The notes: generated by a model from the sequence alone, not told the origin. 64,000 nucleotides of DNA from an uncultured Alphaproteobacteria bacterium (GCA_963775275.1 CAVZII010000005.1:1731445-1795444), one strand, 5' to 3'. Numbered from the stretch's first letter, positions 4,374-47,484 are shown. Made by a program: numbers and translations.

Positions 4374-4934
4374 ATGGACGTGAAGGTCCCGGCCATGTCC
4401 GCCGCGCGCGCGAGCGTCCAAGGCTACGATCCCAAGCTGCACGACCCTTTCTTCGACGGCGTGTCCGACGCCCTGGCCGACAAGGGCTTCGTGACCGCGG
4501 GCCTGGACGACGTGATCACCTGGGCGCGTACGGGCTCGTTGATGTGGATGACCTTCGGGCTCGCCTGCTGCGCGGTCGAGATGATGCAGGCCTCGATGCC
4601 GCGCTATGACCTCGAGCGGTTCGGCTTCGCGCCCCGCGCCAGCCCGCGCCAGTCGGACGTGATGATCGTGGCGGGCACCTTGACCAACAAGATGGCTCCG
4701 GCCCTGCGCAAGGTCTACGACCAGATGCCCGAGCCGCGCTACGTGATCTCGATGGGCAGCTGCGCCAACGGCGGCGGCTACTACCACTACAGCTACGCCA
4801 TCGTCCGCGGCTGCGACCGGATCGTGCCGGTGGACGTCTATGTGCCGGGCTGTCCGCCCACCGCCGAGGCCCTGGTCTACGGCGTGCTGCAGCTGCAGAA
4901 GAAGATCCGCCGCACCGGCACGATCGAGCGGTAA
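4374..4934 (+). CDS. nuoB: NADH-quinone oxidoreductase subunit B (NuoB/Nqo6 family), stand-alone copy
   Basis: 186 aa [53 protein letters not shown]. All four Cys ligands of the N2 [4Fe-4S] cluster are present. No nuoA or nuoC is adjacent. Confidence 0.8.
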
Positions 4935-30914: not shown

Positions 30915-31000
30915 GCCCCAGTGGCGAAATGGTAGACGCGACAAACTCAAAATCTGTTGTCCGCAAGGGCGTGCTGGTTCGAGTCCGGCCTGGGGCACCA
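30915..31000 (+). tRNA. tRNA-Leu (anticodon CAA)
   Basis: GCCCCAG..CTGGGGC acceptor stem, D-arm GCGAAATGGTAGACGC, anticodon loop cuCAAaa, long variable arm, T-arm GGTTCGAGTCC, discriminator A and encoded CCA. 86 nt. Confidence 0.85.
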
Positions 31001-34608: not shown

Positions 34609-35688
34609 TCAGCGGCCCTTGTTCAGGGTGCGGTATTCCACGAGCCGGCTCTTGTCGCGGCTGACCTGGTCGCCGATGGTGTCGTCCAGGTCCAGCGTGG
34701 CGTAGCGAATCCAGCTCTCGGACCCCAGCTTGTCGCGCGCCAGGTTCAGCGGCGTCTTCCAGAAGTGGTAGGACACCCAGCCCATCGCCAGGCCCAGCAC
34801 GCCGGCGACCGCCTGCAGCGCGCGGAACGCGCCCGCGCTCGCCGTGGCGGGGACCGGCTGCAGCGCGAACAGCCCCGCCCAAACCAGGATGATCAGCACC
34901 GCCAGGGCGCCGCCGACCCAGTTGGTCCAGTAGCGCTCGCGCCGCACGCGCCACATCTCGACCTGGATGAACTTCTCCAGGTACTCCATGCGCTTGGCCA
35001 CCCACATCACCAGGCGAACGAGGAACTTGGAGCGCCGGCCCCAGGCTTCGCCCTCGTGCTGGTAGTGGGTCTCCTCCTGGTCGGGCAGGGCGCGCAGGGT
35101 GGTGTAGAGGTTCTGCAGCTCGCGGGTGCGCTGGATGATCTGGCGCGACAGCTCGTAGCTGCGGTTCTCCAGGCTGATCCGGTACTGCACGAACACCAGG
35201 ACGTTGATCCCCGCGAACACCGCCGGGGTCAGGACCATGGCCGCGATCACCCCGGCGATCCCGCCGGCGGTCCCCATGCCGAGGCCCGCGCCGATCGAAG
35301 GGCCCTGCACCGCCAGGAGCCACAGGGTCGCCAGGGCCAGCGCCAGCAGCAGCCGCTTGATCCCGACGTAGAAGGCCAGGGCCCCGAAGAACCGCCGGGT
35401 GTAGCGGCTGATCAGCGCCCGGATGTCCTCGTCGTCGGGAAACCGGTCGGCGATGCTGTCCTCGTAGAACCGGTAGAAGCGGTGCGGCTTGCTGTTGGTC
35501 TCCGAGAACGGAAACATGTCCAGCGGAGTGTTGAAGTAGCGGTCGATCTCGTCCGACAGCTGGGTCTGCCGCTCGGGCGAGGGATGGGTGTAGTCCCCCT
35601 CGGAGATGGCGCGCAGGGTGAGATTGCGCGTGGACAGCCGCGGCGGCGCCCGGTCCGGCTGCTCGTTGTCCGCGGTCATGATCCTCAC
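34609..35688 (-). CDS. Hypothetical integral membrane protein, no recognisable domain
   Basis: 359 aa. Diverse native-like composition. Two hydrophobic blocks (~aa 100-170 and 275-300) separated by Arg/Glu-rich predicted helices. It is the real frame; the overlapping 588-aa ORF 34568..36334 is a shadow. Confidence 0.65.
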   Translation of the reverse strand: MRIMTADNEQPDRAPPRLSTRNLTLRAISEGDYTHPSPERQTQLSDEIDRYFNTPLDMFPFSETNSKPHRFYRFYEDSIADRFPDDEDIRALISRYTRRFFGALAFYVGIKRLLLALALATLWLLAVQGPSIGAGLGMGTAGGIAGVIAAMVLTPAVFAGINVLVFVQYRISLENRSYELSRQIIQRTRELQNLYTTLRALPDQEETHYQHEGEAWGRRSKFLVRLVMWVAKRMEYLEKFIQVEMWRVRRERYWTNWVGGALAVLIILVWAGLFALQPVPATASAGAFRALQAVAGVLGLAMGWVSYHFWKTPLNLARDKLGSESWIRYATLDLDDTIGDQVSRDKSRLVEYRTLNKGR

Positions 35689-35844: not shown

Positions 35845-36297
35845 TCAGTTCAGGGCGAGGAACCCTGCGTTCAGCACCGTGGCGAAGGCGACCCAGAGGG
35901 CGTAGGGCGTGAACAGCAGCGCCGAGGTCCGGTCGCGCGACCAGCACGTCTCGATGAAGGCGACGATGACGGCAAGGAGCAGGACGATCACCGCCAGCGC
36001 GAGCCCCATCCGATGGGCCGCGAAGAAGACCGGCGACCAGAGGAAGTTCAGCGCCAGCTGCGCGCCCCACAGGCGCATCGGCCAGCCGGCGCGGTCCCGG
36101 CGCCAGAGGCGCCATCCCGTCACGGCGATCAGGACGTAGATCGCGCTCCAGGCGATCGGGAACACCCAGCCCGGCGGCGTGAAGGCCGGCTTGGCGAGGC
36201 CCGCGTACCACGGGCCTGGCGCGGTGGCGTAGCCGATCGCAAGCCCGCCGCCGAGGACCAGGGCGACGAAGGCGATCAGGGTAAGTCCCGCTTTCAT
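35845..36297 (-). CDS. tspO: TspO/MBR tryptophan-rich sensory protein
   Basis: 150 aa, five TMs, with conserved W/P positions (..WYAGLAKPAFTPPGWVFPIAWSAIYVL..LNFLWSPVFF..). Confidence 0.85.
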   Translation of the reverse strand: MKAGLTLIAFVALVLGGGLAIGYATAPGPWYAGLAKPAFTPPGWVFPIAWSAIYVLIAVTGWRLWRRDRAGWPMRLWGAQLALNFLWSPVFFAAHRMGLALAVIVLLLAVIVAFIETCWSRDRTSALLFTPYALWVAFATVLNAGFLALN

Positions 36298-36443: not shown

Positions 36444-36947
36444 ATGTCCGTGACCGAGGAGGAGCTTGGAGTCGTCGAGCGGATCGAGGGCGGCGCCGTG
36501 CGGGCGCGGCTCGAGCGGCTGTTCGAGGCCGACCAGGCGGCGGTCTGGGCGGCCCTGACCGAGCCTGGCCAACTCGCCCAGTGGCTGGCGCCCGGCGAGA
36601 TCGCGCTCTTCAAGGGCGGTCCGGCCAAGCTCGACTTCGTCGACAGCGGCATCGTCATCGACAGCACCGTGGCCGCGGTCGATCCGCCGCGCCTGCTGCA
36701 ATACTCCTGGAGCGGGCCGGGCGAGCCCGAGCGGCCCCTGCGCTGGGAGACGGCCGAGGCGGGCGATGGCTCGACGCGCCTGACCCTCACCGTGACAATT
36801 CCCGCGGGCGAGGACGCGGCCAAGGCCTGCGCCGGCTTCGTGGCGCACCTGCAGATGCTCGCCGCCGCCCTCTATGGCGCGCCGATGAAGTTCCCGTTCG
36901 ACGTCTACAAGGCCGCGCGCGAAGCCTACAAGGCGCGCCTGCTCTGA
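36444..36947 (+). CDS. SRPBCC-superfamily protein (Aha1-like)
   Basis: 167 aa MSVTEEELGVVERIEGGAVRARLERLFEADQAAVWAALTEPGQLAQWL.. GGGAGAG RBS. Start is inside the longer 36303..36947 ORF. Confidence 0.7.
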   Translation: MSVTEEELGVVERIEGGAVRARLERLFEADQAAVWAALTEPGQLAQWLAPGEIALFKGGPAKLDFVDSGIVIDSTVAAVDPPRLLQYSWSGPGEPERPLRWETAEAGDGSTRLTLTVTIPAGEDAAKACAGFVAHLQMLAAALYGAPMKFPFDVYKAAREAYKARLL

Positions 36948-36951
36948 CGAC

Positions 36952-37563
36952 CTAACCAGCGGCGGCCGGGCGGCCGTTGCAGCGGGCGAGCCATTCGGCG
37001 AGCCGGGGAAAGCCGGAGAAGTCGAACTTCGCCATCGCGCCGGCCCCGATCGAGGCGGCGACGTTCAGGTCGGCGGCGGTGAAGCGGTCTCCCACCAGCC
37101 AGCGGCGGCCGGAGAGGACGCCGTCCAGCACCGCGAGCGGGGTCTTCAGACGTTCGGCCGCCTGGTCCGCGGCGGCCGCGTCGCGGGCGGCCTCGGGCTT
37201 GAACACGCGCTCCATCAGAACCGTGTTCATGTGCGGGTCGATCTCGTTGACCGCCCAGAAGCTCCATTGCCAGACGCGGCCCTCGTCCTCGACGCTCGAG
37301 GGGTAGATCGGCCCCTCGCCGCCCGAGCCGTACTTCTTGGCGAGGTAGAGCACGATCGCGAAGGACTCGAAGAGCCTGGTTCCGTCGTCGTCGATTGCAG
37401 GGATGCGGCCGTTGGGATTGATCGCCAGGAACTCGGGTCTCTTGGTGCTTCCGTCGTGGGGGTCCACCTGGACGAGGTCGAAGTCGACGCCCGTCTCGCG
37501 CGCGGCCCACAGCGCCCGCGAGGCGCGGGAAAAGGCGGTCCCGTAGATCTTCAGTCTGGCCAT
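36952..37563 (-). CDS. Glutathione S-transferase
   Basis: 203 aa [66 protein letters not shown] is a GST N-terminal thioredoxin-like domain plus C-terminal helical domain. Confidence 0.85.
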
Positions 37564-37738
37564 CGTCGTCCCTCCCGGCGGCGCGGTCGATCGCCGCGTG
37601 CGCCGCAGGCTTATCGCGCGCAGGCCGGTCTTGGCCAAGGGCCCGTCGGAATCCACAGGGACCCTGGCGAAATCGAGGTGGCGGGCAACTGGCGCGCGGC
37701 GTCGAACTAAGGCTAAGCTGCGCGCGGAGGAACGCCCA

Positions 37739-39220
37739 ATGAGATTCAAGTCCCTGGCGCTGGTCGGCGCCGTTGTCGTTGCCGCCGGCGCCTGGAGTTC
37801 GGCCTCGGGTCCGGCCGACGCCTGGCCGTTCCATTCGAAATCGGGGGCGGCGAAGCCGGCCTCCGCCGCTGCGCCGGCCGCGCCCCAGGCCGCGCCGGCC
37901 CAGGCCTCCGCGCCGCCGACGCCGAGGTCCCAGGACCTGCGCCGCCGCATCGGTCCCTTCGGCATCCCCTATCCGTTCGACCTGTCCTACATGCTGCGCG
38001 GCGGCTACGGCCCGTTCGGCCGGCCCAACCCCGAGATCAAGGGCCCGCCGCCCGGCGTCGAGCCCCTGCCGAACGACATGTTCACGTCCAAGAACTTCTA
38101 CAAGGACAGGAAGCTCTGGTCCGACCCGCGCTATTACCGCTGCAATACGCCCCGCGCGATGATCGAGTGGATGTGGGAGTCCGGCAAGATCGGCAAGAAC
38201 CCGCCGACCTCCGCCTCGTGGGGCGACAGCTGCGACAGCCTCTATCCGCGCGACAAGATCGTCAGCCCATATCCCTACAAGACCGCCAAGGCGCAGTACG
38301 AGGCCCTGCTCGCCAAGGCGAAGGCGCACGGCGGGCCCACGGTCTACACCAAGGCCACGACGCCGGACTGGGACGGATTCTACACGCGCGACCCGGACGC
38401 CAGCGACATCCCCTCCGGAAGCTATGTGGAGGACCGCCGCGCCGGCGGGCCGGGCCGCGGCGAGCGCTGGATCTGGGGCGGGATCGACCAGGCGCCGACG
38501 ATCCTGTCGCTCCTGACCCCGAAATATCAGACCCGCTGGGTCCAGGCGCTCTATCACGAGACCGTCGACAACTCGAAGCAGTGGAACGCTTCGTTCTGCT
38601 ATCCGGAAGGCTTCGTCCGCCTGTGGGCGGGAGCGTCCCAGGCGTCGAACTTCGAGCTGACCATGACGCCCTACAAGGTCCAGTTCCTGGGCGGCGTGGC
38701 CGACAATTTCCTGCGCGAGATCCTGATCGGGCGCCAGCACGTCCAGACGGTGCCCCAGTGGTACGGCGAGACGGTGGGCTTCTGGGACGGGGACACCCTG
38801 GTGACCTGGACCGCCGACATCCAGGGCTGGACCCAGCACACCATGTTCGAGTTCAGCTCGCAGATGGAGACGGTCGAGATCTTCAAGCCCGCCTACGACA
38901 AGAAGCATCACTTCATCGGCATCGACCACGAGGCGATCTGGTACGATCCCGAAGCCCTGGTGCAGCCGGTGCGGCTCTTCGAGCGCTACCTGCGCATCGC
39001 GCCGCCGAACGATCCCAGGGCGCGGTTCACCTTCATCGAGTGCCTGTCCAACATCAAGAACGTGAACGGCCGGCCCAAGCAGCTGACCAAGGAAGACCCG
39101 GACTACGTCGACTATTACGGCCGGCCCTGGGCCCAGAACTGGGAGACCTGGCTCGAGAAGGGCTGGGACAAGCCCGACGACGAAGAGGTGCCGCAGGACG
39201 TGCTCGACCTGTTGAAGTAG
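37739..39220 (+). CDS. Large secreted protein of unknown function, Trp/Tyr/Pro-rich (possibly DUF1329-like; unverified)
   Basis: 493 aa. Signal peptide [28 protein letters not shown], a low-complexity Ala/Pro linker, then a ~400-aa aromatic-rich domain. Native codon usage. Confidence 0.75.
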
Positions 39221-39274
39221 AGTGGGCGGGGGCCCGGACCGAAATCGCGCTCAGCGCGCCATAGGGGAAGAGAC

Positions 39275-39754
39275 GTGAATACAGGAATGCTTACCGGCGC
39301 TCGGGCCGCCGCCATCGCAGCCGCGGCCGCCTTGGGGGCCGTGGCCGGCCCGGCCATGGCCCACCACTCCTTCGCCATGTACGACCAGACCAAGACCCTG
39401 GTCCTGACCGGCGTGACGACGACCTTCATCGGCCAGGCCAACCACGCCGAGCTGCACTTCTACATGATCGGGCCGGACGGCAAGCTGGAGCGGGGCAAGG
39501 ACGGCAAGTTCGTCGACTACGGCGTCGAGATGATGGGCGCCGCGGCCATGGCCGAGCAGGGGATCACGGCCGCGACCTTCCCTGCCGGCACCATCTTCAG
39601 CGTCAAGGTCAACCCCATGCGCGACGGCTCGAACTTCGGATCGCGCGCCGGCGCCACGCCGATCGCCAAGTGCCCCTGGAAGACGCCGCCCGCGCCGGGC
39701 AAGACCTGCGCCACCGTCAAGGGCGTGCAGCTGCTCGGCGGCGCTGCGTTCTAA
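39275..39754 (+). CDS. Small secreted protein whose mature N-terminus would begin His-His (DUF6152-like; family assignment from memory)
   Basis: 159 aa. Signal peptide ..AAAALGAVAGPAMA / HHSFAMYDQTKTLVLTGVTTTFIGQANHAELHF.. Two Cys near the C-terminus (..KCPWKTPPAPGKTCA..). Confidence 0.7.
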   Translation: MNTGMLTGARAAAIAAAAALGAVAGPAMAHHSFAMYDQTKTLVLTGVTTTFIGQANHAELHFYMIGPDGKLERGKDGKFVDYGVEMMGAAAMAEQGITAATFPAGTIFSVKVNPMRDGSNFGSRAGATPIAKCPWKTPPAPGKTCATVKGVQLLGGAAF

Positions 39755-39805
39755 GTCGCTCGCCCCGGCTCAGGCTTTCACGAAACCTGCGACAGGAGGC
39801 CCCCG

Positions 39806-40327
39806 GTGAAGGGTCTGGTGGACTGGATCGCCGCCACGCCGCTCAGCGTGCTGTTCCAGCAGCAGGAGGCGTGGCTCATCCCGACCGTCCAGTCGATCCA
39901 CATCGCCGGGATCGGGGTGGTGCTGGCCTGCGTGCTGGTGATGACCCTGCGCATCCTGGGCTATGCGGCGACGGACCTGACCGTGCTCCAGACCCAGCGG
40001 CGCTTCGGCCCCTGGCTGATCGGGGCGCTGTGGGTGCTGTTGGGGACCGGGATCCTGATGATCATCGCCGAGCCCGAGCGGGAGCTGATCACCTTCTCCT
40101 TCTGGGCCAAGATGACGCTGGTGGCGATCGGGACGGCGATCGCCCTGCTGTTCCAGCGGTCGGTCAGGGCCCGCGGCGAGGGCTGGGAGCTGTCGCTTCA
40201 GGGCCGCGCCCCAGTCAAGGCCATCGCCGTGGCGACGCTCCTGATCTGGCTCGTCATCGTCGTCCTGGGACGCCTGATCGCCTACGACCACGTGTGGGGC
40301 GTCCTGTCGCCCGCGACCAAGGCCTGA
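39806..40327 (+). CDS. 4-TM membrane protein of unknown function (paralog 1)
   Basis: 173 aa ..QSIHIAGIGVVLACVLVMTLRILGYAATD.., paralogous to the next gene (..ATHVIALTLVFGTIMIVDLRILGVASTN..). Confidence 0.7.
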   Translation: MKGLVDWIAATPLSVLFQQQEAWLIPTVQSIHIAGIGVVLACVLVMTLRILGYAATDLTVLQTQRRFGPWLIGALWVLLGTGILMIIAEPERELITFSFWAKMTLVAIGTAIALLFQRSVRARGEGWELSLQGRAPVKAIAVATLLIWLVIVVLGRLIAYDHVWGVLSPATKA

Positions 40328-40366
40328 GGCGCGCATGAGCCGGACATATCCCGAGGAGGCGACCGG

Positions 40367-40960
40367 ATGAGCGTCACCCCCCTGCTCGATGCGCTGCAGC
40401 ACTCCGGGCTCGCGTCCTACATCCGCAACTCCTTCCTGGCCTTCCCCCTGCTCGAGGCGACCCACGTCATCGCCCTGACCCTGGTGTTCGGCACGATCAT
40501 GATCGTCGACCTCAGGATCCTGGGCGTGGCCTCGACCAACCGGCTCTACACCCGCGTCTCGGACGACATGCTGAAGTGGACGTGGGGATTCTTCGGCCTC
40601 GCCGTCCTGACCGGCTCGCTGATGTTCATCACCAACGCGCGGATCTATTTCGACAACGGCTTCTTCCGCGCCAAGTTCGCCCTGATGGCGCTGGCGGGCC
40701 TGAACATGCTGGCCTTCCAGCTGACCACCGGCCGCCACCCGGCGGCCTGGGACTCCGGGCAGGCCGCGCCCCGGCTCGGCAAGGCGGCCGCGGTCCTGTC
40801 GCTGGTGCTCTGGGTGCTGGTGATCGGCATGGGCCGGGCGGTGGGCTTCTCCACCACCCGCCAGCAGGCCAAGGAGATCGCGCCGCCGGCCAATGTCGAT
40901 TTCAGCTCGTTCCTGGACAGCGGCCCATCAGACGCTCCCCCGGCGAGCAGCGGGAACTGA
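40367..40960 (+). CDS. 4-TM membrane protein of unknown function (paralog 2)
   Basis: 197 aa. Same topology and conserved blocks as 39806..40327, with an added Pro/Ala-rich C-terminal tail. Confidence 0.7.
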   Translation: MSVTPLLDALQHSGLASYIRNSFLAFPLLEATHVIALTLVFGTIMIVDLRILGVASTNRLYTRVSDDMLKWTWGFFGLAVLTGSLMFITNARIYFDNGFFRAKFALMALAGLNMLAFQLTTGRHPAAWDSGQAAPRLGKAAAVLSLVLWVLVIGMGRAVGFSTTRQQAKEIAPPANVDFSSFLDSGPSDAPPASSGN

Positions 40961-40963
40961 GCG

Positions 40964-41545
40964 TCAGTCCTTGATCCCGTCCTCGCGCGCCGCCTCCCAG
41001 GCGCGTTTGTCGTTCGGGTAGAAGTAGTGCAGGTGGCAGCTCTCGCAGGCCTTGTCGACGCCGTCGAGCGCCCTCTGCAGCGCGCGCGGGTCGCGCACGG
41101 CCACCGCCTGGGCCGCCACGTCGGCCGCCGACTTCAGCCGCAGCGCCCGGCGGTCGAAGTCGTCGCGGTGCGACTGGATCGCCTGCTGGATCCAGGCCGG
41201 GTCGCTCTCGATCCCGGGGTGCTCGGACTTGGAGCCCGGCGGCGCGGCCTTCAGGCCCTTGGCGGTCAGGATCTCGGGCGCGTCCTGCAGCACCTTGAGC
41301 TGGTCGGCCACCTCCCGCCACTGGGCGTCCGTCTCGGGCGCCTTCAAATGCTGGCCCTTGGCGTCGGCGATGTCCTGGACCGACTGGAAGAGGAAGTTCC
41401 CGGCGGGATTCACCTCGCCTTCCATGAACTGCTGGATCGTGGTGCGCGGCGGCGGAGCCGACGGCTTGGAGCAGCTTGCGGCCGCAATCACAGCCAGCAG
41501 AGCGGCTGGCAGGAGGCATGATCTGATCGCCGGCGCCGAGGTCAT
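40964..41545 (-). CDS. Class II cytochrome c (cytochrome c'/c-556 type, C-terminal CxxCH), lipoprotein
   Basis: 193 aa. Signal/lipobox MTSAPAIRSCLLPAALLAVIAAASC, helical-bundle composition, single heme motif CESCH 15 residues from the C-terminus. Confidence 0.7.
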   Translation of the reverse strand: MTSAPAIRSCLLPAALLAVIAAASCSKPSAPPPRTTIQQFMEGEVNPAGNFLFQSVQDIADAKGQHLKAPETDAQWREVADQLKVLQDAPEILTAKGLKAAPPGSKSEHPGIESDPAWIQQAIQSHRDDFDRRALRLKSAADVAAQAVAVRDPRALQRALDGVDKACESCHLHYFYPNDKRAWEAAREDGIKD

Positions 41546-41636
41546 CCAGCTCCTCCCTCCAGACGGCCCGACTGCGCGGGCCTCGATCCGAACCTTAGCA
41601 CAGCCATGGACCGGCAAGGCCAACGCCGCGAAGACC

Positions 41637-42098
41637 CTATGACTCGGGATAGGCCGAGCCGTCCTTGTGCACGAACCGGCCGTCTGCGTTGGCGCTCATC
41701 ATGTCGATGTCCGAGCAGGTCGTGAGGTCGTCCGGCGAGCGCGAGCCGACTTCGAGATAGACCGCCATGGCGCCCGACCTGTTGATCAGGTGATGGCCGT
41801 CGCCGGAGCCCTTGGGGAAGGCCGCGCAATCGCCGGCGCGCAGCACCGTCTCGCCGCCGTCCTCGACCAGCGTCAGCTCGCCTTCGAGCACATAGACGAA
41901 CTCGTCCTCGTGCGAGTGCCAGTGGCGCTGGCTCGACCAGCCCTCCGGCGGCAGGCGCATGAGGTTGACGCCGAAGTCCGTGAGCCCGCCGGCGTTCCCC
42001 AGCCGCCGTCGCACGCGCTCGGCGCAGGGGGCGTCGAAGGGCGGCGGATAGCCCGAGCCCTTGCGTTCAGGCGCGGCGGCGATGTCGATCTTGGGCAT
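41637..42098 (-). CDS. Cupin-domain protein
   Basis: 153 aa ..HWHSHEDEFVYVLEGELTLVEDGGETVLRAGDCAAFPKG..HHLIN.. is a cupin 2 conserved-barrel motif. Confidence 0.7.
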   Translation of the reverse strand: MPKIDIAAAPERKGSGYPPPFDAPCAERVRRRLGNAGGLTDFGVNLMRLPPEGWSSQRHWHSHEDEFVYVLEGELTLVEDGGETVLRAGDCAAFPKGSGDGHHLINRSGAMAVYLEVGSRSPDDLTTCSDIDMMSANADGRFVHKDGSAYPES

Positions 42099-42163: not shown

Positions 42164-42239
42164 TGGTGCCGCCTGGGTGACTCGAACACCCGACCTACGC
42201 ATTACGAATGCGCCGCTCTACCGGCTGAGCTAAGGCGGC
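42164..42239 (-). tRNA. tRNA-Thr (anticodon CGU)
   Basis: Reverse complement GCCGCCTTAGCTCAGCCGGTAGAGCGGCGCATTCGTAATGCGTAGGTCGGGTGTTCGAGTCACCCAGGCGGCACCA: 7-bp acceptor, anticodon loop uuCGUaa, T-arm GTTCGAGTC, CCA encoded. Confidence 0.85.
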
Positions 42240-42654: not shown

Positions 42655-44182
42655 ATGCCGTCGATCTATCTGATCAACCCCGCGCCCTCGATCCCCGGCT
42701 TCTACACCGCCGAGGCCTTCCGCGACGGCGCCCGCGGCTGGGCCCGCGTGGCCGATCTCGCCATCGCCACGGTCGCGGCGATGATCCCGGATCACTGGCA
42801 GGTGCGACTGACCGACGAGTTGATCGACCCCGCCGACCTGGACGCGCCGGAGGGCTTCATCGGCATCACCGGCAAGTCCTCGCAGCGGGACCGGATGATC
42901 GAGCTTGCCGCTCACTACCGCGCGCGCGGCAAGACCGTGATCATCGGCGGGCCTTACGCGACCCTCAACGTCGACGATATGACCCCTCATGCGGACGTGC
43001 TCGTCGCCGGCGAGATCGAGGAGATCGCGCCGCAGATCTTCGCAGATCTGGAGTCCGGATCCTTCCAGCCGCGCTATGACGGCGGCAAGGCCGACATCCG
43101 CCGCTCGCCGGTCCCGCGCTGGGACCTGTATCCGATCGAGCGCGCCATGACCGGCGCCCTGCAGACCACGCGCGGATGCCCGTTCTCGTGCGAATTCTGC
43201 GATGTCATCCAGTACCAGGGCCGCAAGCAGCGGCATAAGGACCTGCCTCAGATCATCGCCGAGCTCGACGCGCTCTACGAGGCCGGCTTCCGCAACGTCT
43301 TCCTGGTGGACGACAATTTCACGGTGCACCGCCGATTCGCCCGCGAGGTGCTGACGGCCATCGCCGGGTGGAACGCCGCCAAGCCGGAGCCCTTCTATTT
43401 CTCGACCCAGGCGTCCCTCGACATCGCCCGCGACGAGGAGCTCCTCGACCTCTGCTACGCCGCGGGCCTGCACATCCTGTTCGTCGGCGTTGAGACGATC
43501 AACGAGGAGAGTTCTGAAGGAAACCGGCAAGAAGCAGAACCTCCTGATGCCCATGCTCGAGGCGCTCGACCGGATCGTCTCACATGGCATCGGGCTGCGG
43601 GCGGGCATCGTGGTCGGGTTCGACCACGACGACGCCGGCATCTTCTCGACCCTGCTGGAATTCTTCGACGCCGCGCCTTTGCCCACCCTGTCGATCAGCG
43701 TGCTCAACGCCCCGGCGCAGACGGACCTCTATCACCGCCTCGAAGCCGAAGGCCGGCTGCGCGGGAGCTCGGTCGGAACCGGCGCGGGCAAATTGTTCGA
43801 CACCAACATCGTTCCGGCCGGGATGAGCCGCGCCGAACTGCTCGAGGGCGCCCTGTGGCTGTCCCAGCAGGCGTTCTCGCCGGCCCGGTTCAAGGAACGG
43901 ATGCTCCGGTTCATCGACCGGTTCCCTGCGGACCTGCCGGCCGCCAGGCGCGGCGCGGCCGAACCGGGCCGTTACGGCTACCGACTGTTCTCGGTGCTCA
44001 AGCGGGAGTTGAGAGGCGATCCGGAGGTCTCCGCAATGACCCAGGATATCCTCAGGGCCGGCATGGCCAAGCCCGCGGTCCTCCCGGCGATCATGGACGC
44101 CCTGGCCCTCTACGCCCAGACGCTCCACGTGATGAACCGCGAGACCGAGGGCGCGACGGAGGTGACCGAGGCGGCCGCCTAG
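42655..44182 (+). CDS. Cobalamin(B12)-binding-domain radical SAM protein (class B rSAM), interrupted by an apparent +1 frameshift near 43532
   Basis: N-terminal B12-binding-like region, then ..TTRGCPFSCEFCDV.. (CxxxCxxC), then ..FVGVETINEES in the frame of ORF 42655..44217. Continues ..LKETGKKQNLLMPMLEALDRIVSHGIGLRAGIVVGFDHDD.. in the frame of ORF 43490..44182. Deleting one t of agTTctgaag joins them into ~508 aa. Confidence 0.8.
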
Positions 44183-44273
44183 AGCGGCGCTCCGATCAAG
44201 TCGGAGCGCCGCTCTAGAAGTCTTGATTTGTCGTGTTTTCCAGCGGCGAACCGGTGTGCACATCGCTGGAAAA
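44180..44273. terminator. Two hairpins between the convergent rSAM and FAAL genes: perfect 16-bp palindrome TAGAGCGGCGCTCCGA-tcaagt-CGGAGCGCCGCTCTA (44180..44216) and TTTTCCAGCG-N18-CGCTGGAAAA (44236..44273)
   Basis: Read directly from the sequence. The first stem includes the rSAM stop codon. Confidence 0.55.
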
Positions 44274-44276
44274 CGC

Positions 44277-45956
44277 TTAGGTCGATCGGGTCGCCCAGCG
44301 GCCCAGAAGGCGGCTCTCGCCGGTCCGGATCGTCGGCTTCAACGTTTCCGCCAGATAGAGCTCGCGGCAGGCGCTCCGCCGCACCTTGCCGCTGGTGGTC
44401 AAGGGGATCGCGCGACGGCGGACCAGAAGCAGGTCGTGCAGCCGCACGCCGAACCCCTGGGCGACGGCCCGAACAGCGGCCTCCACCATTGGCGCGCCCG
44501 CGTCGGCGCCCGTGCCGCGCTCGACTTCCTGGACAGCGACAACCCCGCCGTCGTCAAGCTGGAAGACCGCCCCGACGCCCGCGAACCCGGCGTGGCTGGC
44601 GCCGACCGCCTGCTCGATGTCCGCGGGGTGCAGGTTCTCGCCCCGATGGATGATCACGTCCTTCAGCCGGCCCGTCACGAAGAGCTCGCCATCGGACAGG
44701 AACCCGAGGTCGCCGGTCCTGAGATACGCCAGCCTGGATCCCTCGAGCCGTGCGCCGAAGGCCGCGGCGGTCTCCTCGGGGCGACGCCAGTAGCCATCGG
44801 CGAGGCTGGGCCCCGCCGCCCATATCTCGCCCTCCTCGCCCTCGGCGCAGCGCAGGCAGGTCACCGGATCGACGATCTGGACACTCACTCCGGGAACCGG
44901 GGCCCCGCAGCCGACGATCGGCGGCGCGTCCGGCGTCCGCGCGGCCCGGGTCCGGACCCCGCCGCGCGGGCCGCCCGAGATCACCAGCGTCGCCTCGGCC
45001 AGCCCGTAGCCGGGGCGCAGAGCCTCGGCGCGGAAGCCGAGCGGCGCGAACGCCTCGGCGAACCGCAGCATCGTCGCCGCCCGGACCGGCTCGGCGCCGC
45101 AGAAGGCGCTGTCCCAGGACGACAGGTCCACGCCGGTCAGGTCCATCCGCTCGGCGCGCCGGGCGCAGAGCTCGAAGGCGAAGTTGGGCGCGCCGCTGTA
45201 GGTCGCCCGATGGCGGCTGATCGCCTTCAGCCACCGCTCGGGCTTCTGCATGAAGGTCAGGGCCGGGGCCAGCACGCAGGGGCGTCCGGCATAGGCGGCG
45301 ACGAGGAAGGCGCCGATCAGGCCCATGTCGTGGAACAGGGGCAGCCAGCTGAACACCACGGCCTGGTCGTGCAGCCACAGGCCGTGACGGATCATCTCGA
45401 GGTTCGCGGCCAGCGCCCCGTGGCTGACCAGGACGCCTCTCGGCGCGGATTGCGATCCGGACGTGTACTGCAGCAACGCCGGATCCCCGGCGGAACGAAG
45501 GATCGGCGCCTCGAGCCCCTCGCCGGCCGCCCCGCCTTCCAGCTCGTCGAGCATGATCCAGGGGACCTGCGCGAGCTCCGCCTTCAGGGCGGCTTCCGCC
45601 GAGGTTGCGAGGATCGCCTCGACCCCGGCGTCCTGGGCGACCGCCTTCAGGCGCCGCCATCCTTCGCCGCGCCCGTGCGCCGGCGCGGGGGTCGCGATCG
45701 CCCCGGCGTAGAGGCAGGCCCAGAAGCCGACCGCGAAGGTCACGCCGGGCGACTGCATCACGAGAACCGGCCGGCCTTGCATCCCGCGCCGGACCAGTGT
45801 CGCGGCGAGGCGAAGGGCTCGGGCGTGGAGGTCGCCGAAACTGATCTCGTCCGTCTCGGTCTCGCCGTCGCCCATGACCGTCAAGGCCGTCACGGCCGGG
45901 TCGCGCCGGGCATGCCGCTCGAACGCCCCTGCCAGCCCGTTGGGCGCCTGGCTCAA
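44277..45956 (-). CDS. Fatty-acyl-AMP ligase (FAAL) / AMP-dependent synthetase-ligase
   Basis: 559 aa with full-length ANL adenylating-enzyme motifs (..LLQYTSGSQSAPRGVLVSHG.., ..YGLAEATL.., ..GDLGFLSDGELFVTGRLKD.., ..SGKVRR..) and an FAAL-type insertion. Probable TTG start overlaps the stop of the upstream carrier protein (TTGA). Confidence 0.85.
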   Translation of the reverse strand: MSQAPNGLAGAFERHARRDPAVTALTVMGDGETETDEISFGDLHARALRLAATLVRRGMQGRPVLVMQSPGVTFAVGFWACLYAGAIATPAPAHGRGEGWRRLKAVAQDAGVEAILATSAEAALKAELAQVPWIMLDELEGGAAGEGLEAPILRSAGDPALLQYTSGSQSAPRGVLVSHGALAANLEMIRHGLWLHDQAVVFSWLPLFHDMGLIGAFLVAAYAGRPCVLAPALTFMQKPERWLKAISRHRATYSGAPNFAFELCARRAERMDLTGVDLSSWDSAFCGAEPVRAATMLRFAEAFAPLGFRAEALRPGYGLAEATLVISGGPRGGVRTRAARTPDAPPIVGCGAPVPGVSVQIVDPVTCLRCAEGEEGEIWAAGPSLADGYWRRPEETAAAFGARLEGSRLAYLRTGDLGFLSDGELFVTGRLKDVIIHRGENLHPADIEQAVGASHAGFAGVGAVFQLDDGGVVAVQEVERGTGADAGAPMVEAAVRAVAQGFGVRLHDLLLVRRRAIPLTTSGKVRRSACRELYLAETLKPTIRTGESRLLGRWATRST

Positions 45957-46201
45957 GCCGCGGGCCCCTCGGCGGCGGCGGCCAGCCGACGGTCGATCCA
46001 GGCCGCCACCGCGCGGGCGTCGCTGTGTTCCTCGAACTGGTCGCTCGGCAGCTCGATCGCAAACCTCAGCTCCAGCTCCACGGCGATCTGGAGCGTCTGC
46101 ATGGAGTCCCCGCCCAGACTGTAGACGTCCTTGTCCACGTCCGCACAGGGACGGCCCAACACCTGCGCGTACACCGACTGCACGATGTCGAGCGTGGTCA
46201 T
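45953..46201 (-). CDS. Acyl/peptidyl carrier protein 1 (PCP-like GGDSM 4'-phosphopantetheine site)
   Basis: 82 aa MTTLDIVQSVYAQVLG..DVYSLGGDSMQTLQIAVELE.. ATGA overlap with the upstream gene. Confidence 0.8.
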   Translation of the reverse strand: MTTLDIVQSVYAQVLGRPCADVDKDVYSLGGDSMQTLQIAVELELRFAIELPSDQFEEHSDARAVAAWIDRRLAAAAEGPAA

Positions 46202-47484
46202 TGCATCCCGGGGCCCGGTGCAAAGACGCCGGCGATGACGCCGGCCAGCTCGCCCCGCAGCAGCATCTCGCCCGCGACGGCGTGGCGGCTCAGACCTTCG
46301 ACGCTCACCAGGCGCACATTGTCCAGATCCCCGATCGCTTCCGCCTGGGTGCGGTCGAGCACGACCTCCGACCCGAAATAGAGGTCGATGAGCGGCCCTG
46401 CAGCGCTCTCGACCAGTCTTGGCCGGATGGGGCCGATCATATCCGGGACATATTGCACGAGGCGTTTCTTGATCCTCCCGACGTGGCCGTCATCGGAAAG
46501 CACGCCCTGGTGCAGCGTCGTAGGCGCGCCAAAGCCCAACACCCGTTCGACGCCGAGGTCCAGCCCGTATCTCATGGCCGCAAAGCCTCCCGCCGATGCC
46601 CCGATGGTCGCCAACCGGCGAACGCCCCAGCGCTTCAGCCGCCGACGCAGCGCAAGCAGCGTTTCTGCATAGTCGCGCCCGAGCGCGGGGTTCCCTGCCA
46701 GGTGAAGGAGCCGGTTCGGGTCGAAGAGGTAGATCGCGTTCACGCCGAGCGGGATCAACATCGCCTGGATGAGATCAACGGGAACGCCGCCGAAGCTGCC
46801 GTCCAGACCCGCGAACACCAGGGCCGCGGCGTCCGATCCCCGTCGGCGGTCGAAGACGGCGGGGCCTCGCCCCACGAGTGGGTGGACGCCCCCGACGGCC
46901 GACCTGCAGGTCGAGATCACGTCGATGACCGTCAACAGGATCCGGACCTCACGCGCGTCCTTTTCATGCGTTGCGCGCGGGGCGATCGAGATCAGGCTTT
47001 CCCGCGCCGGCCTCGTCATTCCGCTGCCGATCAGGCGTCGGGCCGCCTCGATCCCGACCGACACCGGTACGGACGGTTTGGCGAGCGTCTCGAGCAGGAA
47101 TTCCGGACCTGACAGGTCGGGGAGGAAGGGGGCCAGCATGACCCGCAAGTGCTGGACGTGTGGATCGCCTGGCTCGATCTCGGAGGCGCGCGACAACCAG
47201 CCGACGGCCTGCTCGACGTCGCCGGACTTGCGGGTGAGTTCGCCGAGCCGGCAAGGCCACCGGGGATTCCCGGGCTCCAGCTCGTGCAGGCGGATCATGC
47301 AGGCCGCCTCCAGCGAAGGGTCACGGCACCCATCCGCAATGTGCGCGGCGCGCCTCAGTCCGTCGGCGTCGAGCTGTGCGGCGTCCAGGGCCGATCGTAT
47401 CGCCGCAGAAGCCGCCTGGCGCTCTCCACGCTTGAGATGGTGACGACAGGATTTCAGCGTCCGCTCTTGGAGAGCCCGGTCCAT
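46198..47484 (-). CDS. TPR-like N-terminal domain plus alpha/beta-hydrolase-fold C-terminal domain protein (GASAGG nucleophile elbow), paralog A
   Basis: 428 aa from MDRALQERTLKS... C-terminal ~230 aa ..ALVFAGLDGSFGG..AIYLFDPNRL..RRLATIGASAGGFAAMRYGLDLG.. with downstream Asp and a ..SRHAV.. His consistent with a Ser-Asp-His triad. About 55% identical to paralog B. The upstream part of ORF 46198..47943 is shadow. Confidence 0.7.
   Translation of the reverse strand: MDRALQERTLKSCRHHLKRGERQAASAAIRSALDAAQLDADGLRRAAHIADGCRDPSLEAACMIRLHELEPGNPRWPCRLGELTRKSGDVEQAVGWLSRASEIEPGDPHVQHLRVMLAPFLPDLSGPEFLLETLAKPSVPVSVGIEAARRLIGSGMTRPARESLISIAPRATHEKDAREVRILLTVIDVISTCRSAVGGVHPLVGRGPAVFDRRRGSDAAALVFAGLDGSFGGVPVDLIQAMLIPLGVNAIYLFDPNRLLHLAGNPALGRDYAETLLALRRRLKRWGVRRLATIGASAGGFAAMRYGLDLGVERVLGFGAPTTLHQGVLSDDGHVGRIKKRLVQYVPDMIGPIRPRLVESAAGPLIDLYFGSEVVLDRTQAEAIGDLDNVRLVSVEGLSRHAVAGEMLLRGELAGVIAGVFAPGPGMQ

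Follow-up and report, generated by a model that had tools for sequence, protein, structure and literature searches.

The closest described system to the genes considered here is copper import of the CopC/CopD type, known from Escherichia coli (YobA/YebZ), Bacillus subtilis (YcnI/YcnJ) and Methylosinus trichosporium OB3b, where a CopD-cytochrome c fusion occurs. CopD/YebZ has eight transmembrane helices (TMHs) and two periplasm-side histidines that are essential for copper uptake, and 'truncated' CopDs of four TMHs retain one histidine (PMC11923076). Approximately 70% of copD genes adjoin copC, approximately 4% carry a fused cytochrome c domain, and the neighbours of copD include TonB-dependent transporters (PMC11923076). 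Histidines that come first after the signal peptide are known to serve in metal binding and form histidine-brace and related sites in LPMOs, CopC, YcnI, DUF4198 and Ang-1/2 (PMC12537917). The present work concerns a gene set in a stretch of 64,000 nucleotides (nt) of DNA from an uncultured Alphaproteobacteria bacterium (GCA_963775275.1 CAVZII010000005.1:1731445-1795444), which as a whole is referred to as the window. Four co-directional genes in the window encode a large secreted protein (here called BIG), a small secreted protein of family DUF6152 and two paralogous four-transmembrane (4-TM) proteins of family DUF6644, and they are followed by the convergent gene of a class II cytochrome c. 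This five-gene set, conserved in soil Proteobacteria and Acidobacteria, probably constitutes an undescribed periplasmic redox or metal-handling system.

Like CopC/CopD, the module combines a His-started periplasmic protein with a CopD-like membrane protein that has a conserved histidine near the periplasmic face, and it shows occasional cytochrome c fusions and nearby TonB-dependent receptors. It differs from CopC/CopD in that the membrane part consists of two 4-TM paralogs, which score below threshold for CopD, the DUF6152 protein is not homologous to CopC, and the cytochrome is of class II rather than of the cbb3 type. In addition, its obligate and very highly conserved BIG/bigS component (bigS being a shorter family related to BIG) is without Cop counterpart. 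As an overall architecture, the combination of a cytochrome with a CopD-like membrane protein and a periplasmic protein that starts with His has known parallels; nothing described corresponds to the obligate barrel partner or to the split CopD-like unit that bears a haem. The genes of the module and its downstream flank are as follows.

37739-39220, + strand: BIG, a 493-residue secreted protein of no Pfam family
38291-39220, + strand: the bigS-homologous part of BIG (residues 185-493; alignment A4)
39275-39754, + strand: DUF6152, a 159-residue secreted protein (Pfam PF19649)
39806-40327, + strand: DUF6644a, a 173-residue 4-TM inner-membrane protein (Pfam PF20349)
40367-40960, + strand: DUF6644b, a 197-residue 4-TM protein, paralog of DUF6644a (Pfam PF20349)
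40964-41545, - strand: class II c-type cytochrome, a probable lipoprotein (IAAAS-C; PF01322)
41637-42098, - strand: cupin (Pfam Cupin_2)

An earlier reading of the window, hereafter the original prediction, had described four co-directional genes with short spacers, and the open reading frames (ORFs) lie as it placed them, with spacers of 54, 51 and 39 nt from BIG to DUF6644b. The convergent cytochrome gene ends 3 nt past DUF6644b. NCBIfam gave no name to BIG, DUF6152, DUF6644a, DUF6644b, the cytochrome or the cupin.

A scan for BIG in one genome per GTDB species returned 447 loci; the counts given below refer to the best 80 of these, nearly all from metagenome-assembled genomes (MAGs). BIG, DUF6152, DUF6644a and DUF6644b occur together in 37 of the 80, the nearest module gene being at a median distance of 83 nt, which bears out the proposal that the four genes form a conserved cluster. 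These four-gene loci span Alphaproteobacteria, Gammaproteobacteria and Acidobacteriota, and the cytochrome is also present in 20 of them. In six further loci BIG lies beside a fused DUF6644-DUF6644-cytochrome gene, and in 35 it stands alone. A class II cytochrome is found in 25 of the 80 related loci, and in many of these its gene points the same way as the module genes or is continuous with DUF6644b. The cupin had also been noted beside the cluster, but it is present in only one of the 80 loci and does not belong to it. The order BIG-DUF6152-DUF6644a-DUF6644b is found in Acidobacteriota and Caulobacteraceae, and DUF6152-DUF6644a-DUF6644b(-cytochrome)-BIG in Steroidobacteraceae. Since gene order depends on the clade, it is selection that has kept the association, and not common descent from a single operon. 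A neighbour-joining tree places the stand-alone BIG genes in essentially one clade and the module-linked genes in others. At least 10 genomes carry both a module copy and a stand-alone copy; the genome of the window itself contains a second BIG (P0118), which is 82-86% identical to stand-alone Caulobacteraceae copies.

The description of BIG as a secreted protein rich in Trp, Tyr and Pro holds. A Sec-type signal peptide (residues ~1-28) is followed by a variable Ala/Pro-rich linker (~29-100) and a very highly conserved core (~100-493), and the composition includes 4.3% W, 4.9% Y and 9.7% P. More than 3600 homologs share 60-86% identity over a core of ~390 residues; they belong to Caulobacteraceae, Steroidobacteraceae, Bryobacteraceae, Terriglobia and 'Acidiferrales' and are all labelled 'hypothetical'. 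When 50%-identity representatives were searched exhaustively, only 966 BIG clusters were obtained, none with a Pfam domain apart from one SnoaL fusion, and BIG itself had no match in Pfam and NCBIfam scans. Residues Y121, G213, W244, T260, P289, R294 and H367 are invariant, and the cysteine pairs C135/C165 and C287/C435 nearly so.

An AlphaFold model of BIG built on a diverse alignment (A2, down to 35% identity) reached a mean predicted local distance difference test score (pLDDT) of 78 and a predicted template-modelling score (pTM) of 0.75, and supersedes a shallow-alignment model (pLDDT 57). It divides into an Ala/Pro linker that is disordered, a domain of helices and loops (~100-300), ten beta-strands (305-448) and a short helical tail. 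As modelled, the strands form a 10-stranded barrel resembling fatty-acid-binding proteins (FABP), and the structural neighbours of this barrel include dinoflagellate luciferase, UnaG and nitrobindin, at a sequence identity of only 8-12%; Foldseek of the model against the PDB gave nothing at E <= 1e-3. Compared with the FABP/calycin barrels (cofactor-less luciferases, UnaG, nitrobindin), BIG is periplasmic, has two conserved Cys pairs and adds an N-terminal helical/loop domain of ~200 residues and a C-terminal extension that are structurally unmatched. The identity of BIG as a DUF1329-like protein, offered in the original prediction, and a LolA-like identity were both rejected, as there is no Pfam match to DUF1329 and the fold is a different one.

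In several loci, weakly BIG-like ORFs of 250-320 residues lie beside BIG. These represent a secreted family of ~250-300 residues, bigS, which aligns end to end with BIG residues 185-493 (alignment A4) and shares with it the motifs PD(L/W)xGxW, C-P-x-G, GxW(E/D)GDTLV, DP and a second Cys. A bigS profile search returned at least 4931 proteins; all of them lack both a Pfam domain and an informative name, and bigS had no match in NCBIfam. Some bigS proteins (P0282-P0289, ~515 residues) are tandem duplicates with two domains per chain. The surroundings of three bigS genes picked at random differed from one another and were not informative.

The 159-residue protein was correctly recognised earlier as DUF6152 (PF19649, 54 bits against a gathering threshold of 27 bits, E = 1.8e-14). 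Predicted cleavage at AMA-HH leaves His30-His31 (codons 39362-39367) as the mature N-terminus. The same mature start (A-HHSFAMYDQ), with cleavage predicted, is present in 41 of 41 related-locus homologs, comprising 37 module orthologs and four divergent copies. H30, H31 and H57 are invariant even among divergent DUF6152 proteins, with near-invariance of S32, F33, D37, E85 and D117, and in the module subfamily E59, H61 and one Cys pair are added to these. DUF6152 therefore shows the sequence signature of N-terminal-His metalloproteins, in which His is first in the mature chain and a second His is conserved. It resembles the histidine-brace and other N-terminal-His proteins (LPMOs, CopC, YcnI, DUF4198, DUF6702, Ang-1/Ang-2) in its His right after cleavage and in having a further invariant His. 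Unlike these, it begins with two consecutive histidines and is paired with or fused to a barrel protein; it has no sequence relation to them. The invariant His-His start and third His, as in N-terminal-His proteins, argue for a metal site in DUF6152, which by analogy would bind a redox-active metal, most likely copper. The Sec signal peptides of both BIG and DUF6152 fit a cofactor that is loaded in the periplasm, such as copper or haem c. Comparison of DUF6152 with E. coli CopC (YobA) gave an hhalign probability of 1%, with only the signal peptide and the first His aligned. DUF6152 is a family without solved structure, and profile searches of the PDB with DUF6152, BIG and DUF6644 returned nothing significant.

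The DUF6152 family comprises at least 7997 single-domain proteins of ~130 residues. Eighty generic DUF6152 loci (AHHSFAAEYD...NPH) were collected from soil metagenomes, and 36 loci of this type are at least 5 kb long. A bigS gene lies within 400 nt of the generic DUF6152 gene in 62 of the 80, on the same strand in 61, and where at least 900 nt of flank is available on both sides it is present in 28 of 29. A class II cytochrome occurs in only one of the 80. The synteny with bigS indicates that the evolutionary core of the system is the pair of DUF6152 and BIG/bigS, and that the cytochrome and the two DUF6644 genes were added to it, as is typical of the BIG clade. This core pair, and the CopD-like character of the membrane proteins described below, go beyond the original prediction.

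Natural gene fusions of three kinds join the parts. In six gammaproteobacterial loci, DUF6644b and a cytochrome c make up one protein (367-391 residues), and a DUF6644-DUF6644-cytochrome c protein of ~430 residues, in which Pfam recognises two DUF6644 stretches and Cytochrom_C_2, occurs in six Bryobacteraceae/Terriglobia loci. An example of a triple fusion lies at L058 6422-7711. The idea that a periplasmic haem protein belongs to the system thus agrees with its attachment to the C-terminus of DUF6644b in other genomes. A DUF6152-bigS fusion of 375 residues, found on 12 contigs from JGI, ENA and Logan, begins with a signal peptide, which is followed by DUF6152, with AHHEMAAEFD as its first residues, and then by a bigS domain. 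From these fusions it would follow that DUF6644a and DUF6644b form one unit, that the haem domain lies on the periplasmic face of this unit and that DUF6152 works physically with the BIG-type protein. A gene for the 375-residue fusion is seen at L169 5722-6849 (also in L170 and L171); in L169 a 156-residue dihaem cytochrome c is encoded upstream and separate DUF6152 and bigS genes lie downstream. BIG also has fusion partners of other kinds. A BD-FAE esterase is attached to its N-terminus in four protein clusters, one of these being inside a complete module, and an N-terminal SnoaL domain is fused to another BIG relative.

The two 4-TM proteins are paralogs, as was proposed, with 25% identity over 136 residues (E = 6e-10), and both belong to DUF6644 (PF20349, 38 and 35.5 bits for DUF6644a and DUF6644b against a gathering threshold of 27 bits). 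The shared H...LRILG block pointed out earlier is equally real; His32, Arg49, Leu51 and Gly52 of this H...LRxLG block are invariant or nearly so among 29 DUF6644 domains, and P26, H32, R49, G82, F99, K102 and G155 are common to all 29. Hydropathy and the positive-inside rule place both termini outside, in agreement with the C-terminal cytochrome fusions. In this predicted topology, the invariant His32 of DUF6644a (codon 39899-39901) is at the periplasmic end of the first transmembrane helix (TM1), and the invariant His33 of DUF6644b (codon 40463-40465) occupies the matching position. The family therefore appears as two 4-TM proteins or as tandem fusions, with one invariant TM1 His each. The periplasm-side Phe99 and Lys102 would suit a haem pocket, and DUF6644b continues past its last transmembrane segment in a Pro/Ala-rich periplasmic tail.

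Relatives of DUF6644 are visible at family level. A sub-threshold match to CopD (PF05425) is found in 11 of the 29 domains, and all 10 of 10 DUF6644a orthologs match positions 2-101 of the 105 in the CopD model, at 17-28 bits against a cutoff of 32.1; DUF6644a and DUF6644b of the window itself had no Pfam match to CopD. DUF2214 matches below threshold in 16 of 29 domains, and weakly also in DUF6644b of the window. HemJ (UPF0093) is a haem-b-binding member of the CopD-type membrane superfamily and resembles DUF6644 in its small size, its four membrane helices and the conserved His of its first helix; four of the 29 domains match it weakly and below threshold (E at least 0.008). A direct profile comparison of DUF6644 with E. 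coli YebZ was not significant and gave no positional equivalence to YebZ H135 and H154.

The match to PF01322 (29.6 bits, cutoff 26.5) identifies the cytochrome as a divergent member of class II, and its only haem motif, CESCH, lies C-terminally at 41033-41047 (- strand). An invariant Met is encoded at 41423-41425, near the domain start. It matches solved class II cytochromes (c, c' and c-556) weakly, with a best E of 4e-4 and over the last two helices only. With cytochrome c' and c-556 it has the C-terminal CxxCH, PF01322 and the last two helices in common; it differs from them in being ~60 residues longer, in aligning over the C-terminal half only and in being tethered or fused to DUF6644b. 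The invariant Met suggests Met/His ligation and six-coordinate haem. Because of this Met and the membrane tether or fusion, the protein is probably a tethered low-spin electron carrier and not a five-coordinate, gas-binding cytochrome c'. The convergent lipoprotein cytochrome c' of the original prediction is thus retained as to its family and haem motif but probably not as a five-coordinate c'.

The neighbours of the module and its relatives are varied. TonB-dependent receptor-like genes are present in 18 of the 80 genome loci and in 10 of the 36 metagenome loci of at least 5 kb, and in L048, L053, L059, L064, L091, L138, L156 and L163 the receptor is directly upstream and co-directional. TonB-dependent receptors are very abundant in Acidobacteria, and part of this adjacency may be background. 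Between receptor and DUF6152, a protein of ~149 residues with a weak rhodanese-like match is encoded in L156 (4432-4878) and L163 (2083-2529), and L091 has a 148-residue protein without Pfam match in the equivalent position (4463-4906). Stand-alone BIG genes occur in apparent operons of the compositions WrbA - aromatic-ring hydroxylase - BIG, aldehyde dehydrogenase - BIG - RPE65-type dioxygenase, and TonB-dependent receptor - short-chain dehydrogenase/reductase - amine oxidase - BIG, and SMP-30-like lactonases are also found near BIG. Pyrroloquinoline quinone (PQQ) dehydrogenases flank BIG in approximately 9 of the 80 genome loci, and an HpaB hydroxylase lies among the generic bigS/DUF6152 genes of L127, L136 and L145. 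L166 (7001-10474) contains an operon-like series of DUF6152, DUF6152, bigS and a PQQ-dependent dehydrogenase, adjoined by a cytochrome c gene. Redox partners recur in various forms, as the class II cytochrome, a dihaem cytochrome c or a PQQ dehydrogenase with cytochrome c. In a Steroidobacteraceae MAG (L026 12413-14718), a CDF cation-efflux gene and two further, divergent copies of DUF6152 come after the full module; the CDF neighbour is a hint of a metal link.

Taken together, these observations are best accommodated if DUF6152 and BIG are a periplasmic metalloprotein pair that carries out redox chemistry on a hydrophobic or aromatic ligand and is served by a CopD-like, haem-carrying membrane unit, a reading to which we assign a probability of about 40%. 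The FABP-like barrel of BIG would hold a hydrophobic, probably aromatic or phenolic, small molecule, which in many genomes would be supplied via the adjacent TonB-dependent receptor. The metal centre of DUF6152 would perform the redox chemistry on this ligand, and electrons would pass, in one direction or the other, between that centre and the membrane via the tethered haem c and the DUF6644 heterodimer. The two 4-TM bundles would bear the class II cytochrome on the periplasmic side, lipid-anchored in the window and covalently fused elsewhere, and the two histidines of the heterodimer may hold a b-type haem or hand over metal. A redox role is favoured because the constant partner of DUF6152 is a barrel protein and not a membrane protein, because BIG is fused to an esterase and a SnoaL domain, because stand-alone BIG paralogs sit amid oxidative catabolic genes and because diverse c-type cytochromes recur near the pair.

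Several points weigh against this reading. The catabolic neighbours are heterogeneous, each being present in only ~5-12% of loci. The residues invariant across BIG and bigS are Gly, Pro, one Asp and the Cys pair, with no invariant metal ligand or obvious catalytic residue, so that BIG may merely bind or carry something. DUF6644 is near only 5 of the 80 generic DUF6152-bigS loci, and any c-type cytochrome is present in only 4 of the 36 of at least 5 kb; a dedicated membrane unit for electron transfer is therefore no inherent part of the pair. At family level, DUF6644 is related only to the copper importer CopD, DUF2214 and HemJ, all below threshold, and transport is equally compatible with them. 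The members of the set come nearly all from uncultured MAGs and are known here from sequence alone, and the proposed contacts of BIG with DUF6152 and of DUF6644a with DUF6644b are deduced from fusions and synteny.

The strongest rival is an importer of copper or another divalent metal of the CopC/CopD type, in which DUF6152 would capture the metal in the periplasm by its N-terminal histidines, the cytochrome would reduce it, DUF6644a and DUF6644b would transport it over the inner membrane as a split eight-TM CopD, by way of their two periplasm-side histidines, and BIG would be an accessory, perhaps for capture or delivery. The match of all 10 DUF6644a orthologs to the full CopD model speaks for it, together with the weak DUF2214 and HemJ matches and the CopD parallels on record, namely single-His four-TMH forms, copC adjacency, cytochrome c fusions and TonB-dependent transporters (PMC11923076). 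Mature DUF6152 and E. coli CopC (YobA) both begin with His, TonB-dependent receptors are found at 18 of 80 and 10 of 36 loci, and extra DUF6152 copies lie beside a CDF metal exporter in L026. However, every CopD match is below the Pfam gathering score, and the direct comparisons with YebZ and YobA were not significant. An importer would also leave unexplained why the obligate partner of DUF6152 is bigS/BIG, with DUF6644 near so few generic pairs, why BIG is fused to esterase and SnoaL domains and stands alone in catabolic operons, and why its conservation is so extreme; on balance we consider this explanation unlikely, although it remains the most serious competitor. A more ambitious version of the redox reading, in which DUF6152 and BIG/bigS are a new class of two-subunit (sometimes single-chain) periplasmic copper oxidoreductase and the membrane unit wires the BIG-clade enzyme to the respiratory chain, is speculative and rather doubtful. 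In that version, the His-His centre of the small subunit would oxidise hydrophobic aromatics derived from lignin or humus, imported through TonB-dependent receptors and held in the barrel.

Release of metal from a chelate would make use of all five components. A hydrophobic metallophore or a tetrapyrrole-like chelate, imported through a TonB-dependent receptor, would sit in the BIG barrel, the tethered cytochrome would reduce it, and DUF6152 would catch the freed ion and pass it to DUF6644. Co-directional receptors directly upstream in several loci are consistent with this, as are the tetrapyrrole binders among the structural neighbours of the barrel (dinoflagellate luciferase, UnaG, nitrobindin). 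However, no metallophore biosynthesis genes were seen near the loci and no metal regulator or operator sequence was seen upstream, the receptor adjacency amounts to only ~20-28% and is perhaps partly background, and the stand-alone BIG copies and esterase fusions are left unexplained; this route is improbable. More improbable by far is a module for nitrosative or oxidative stress, touched on in the original prediction, with a cytochrome c' that binds gas at its centre. The haem protein does match PF01322, 'Cytochrome C'', and a glutathione S-transferase (GST) and a cupin are nearby in the window. The invariant N-terminal-side Met, however, suggests six-coordinate haem, the haem domain is tethered or fused to a membrane protein, GST and cupin are not conserved neighbours, and nitric oxide-related genes were found in none of the loci. 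The proposal of a 'periplasmic redox or metal-handling or uptake system' thus still names the class to which the evidence points, although the cupin is no conserved neighbour and the cytochrome is probably not a five-coordinate c'.

The BIG/bigS, DUF6152 and DUF6644 families have no characterised member, solved structure or paper, and BIG is absent from Pfam. A literature search on the names DUF6152 and DUF6644 found no paper that mentions either, and the module cluster is not described in the lanthanide/XoxF gene-cluster paper. The carriers are almost all soil and peat bacteria of the Bryobacteraceae, Terriglobia, Steroidobacteraceae and Caulobacteraceae. From the fusions and the near-obligate synteny, a concrete wiring can be proposed for testing, in which a small protein with a metal tip and a barrel for the ligand work with a CopD-like unit in two parts and a haem on a tether. 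Should DUF6152 bind copper, a new family would join the histidine-brace proteins; if the DUF6644 pair carries electrons and not copper, the view of the CopD superfamily would change. Either outcome would improve the annotation of many 'hypothetical' periplasmic genes in soil metagenomes. The copper oxidoreductase, if true, would bring to light a major path by which soil Acidobacteria and Proteobacteria turn over carbon and which annotation has missed, and it would give the CopD superfamily a role in electron transfer.

Upstream of BIG, no recognisable metal-regulator operator was seen in the window or in L001 and L002, and an Rfam scan of the locus found neither riboswitch nor leader RNA. The upstream regions of these three Caulobacteraceae-type BIG genes resemble each other only in the ribosome-binding site and a GCTAAG motif. 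The motif lies ~20 nt before the conserved GGAGGAACGCC ribosome-binding site (37700-37738 in the window, ~7960-8000 in L001/L002) and may be a promoter -10 element.

The window has a G+C content of ~70%, and the following further features surround the module.

30915-30997, + strand: tRNA gene
35845-36297, - strand: TspO gene, adjoining the gene of a 359-residue membrane protein
36450-36947, + strand: SRPBCC/AHSA1 gene
36952-37569, - strand: GST gene
42167-42239, - strand: tRNA gene, directly past the cupin

The tRNA gene at 42167-42239 adjoins the cupin gene and is therefore taken as the downstream boundary of the neighbourhood. On the upstream side, the 359-residue predicted membrane protein (34609-35688, - strand) has no Pfam family, and neither its gene nor those of TspO, SRPBCC/AHSA1 and GST recur in related loci. 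TspO, SRPBCC and GST were rejected as cluster members on account of this absence. Beyond the tRNA boundary, a B12-binding/radical-SAM-like gene is apparently split over two frames (42655-44217 and 43490-44182, both + strand). The ORF at 42655-44217 becomes Arg/Pro-rich past residue ~280, and the overlapping ORF in the other frame reads on sensibly. This points to a sequencing error or a frameshift near 43480-43500, or to a pseudogene. Further downstream, a fatty-acyl-AMP ligase-like gene (44277-46223, - strand) and a small overlapping acyl-carrier-protein-like ORF (45953-46201, - strand), both read from their translations, seem to belong to a locus for a lipid or a secondary metabolite that has nothing to do with the module.

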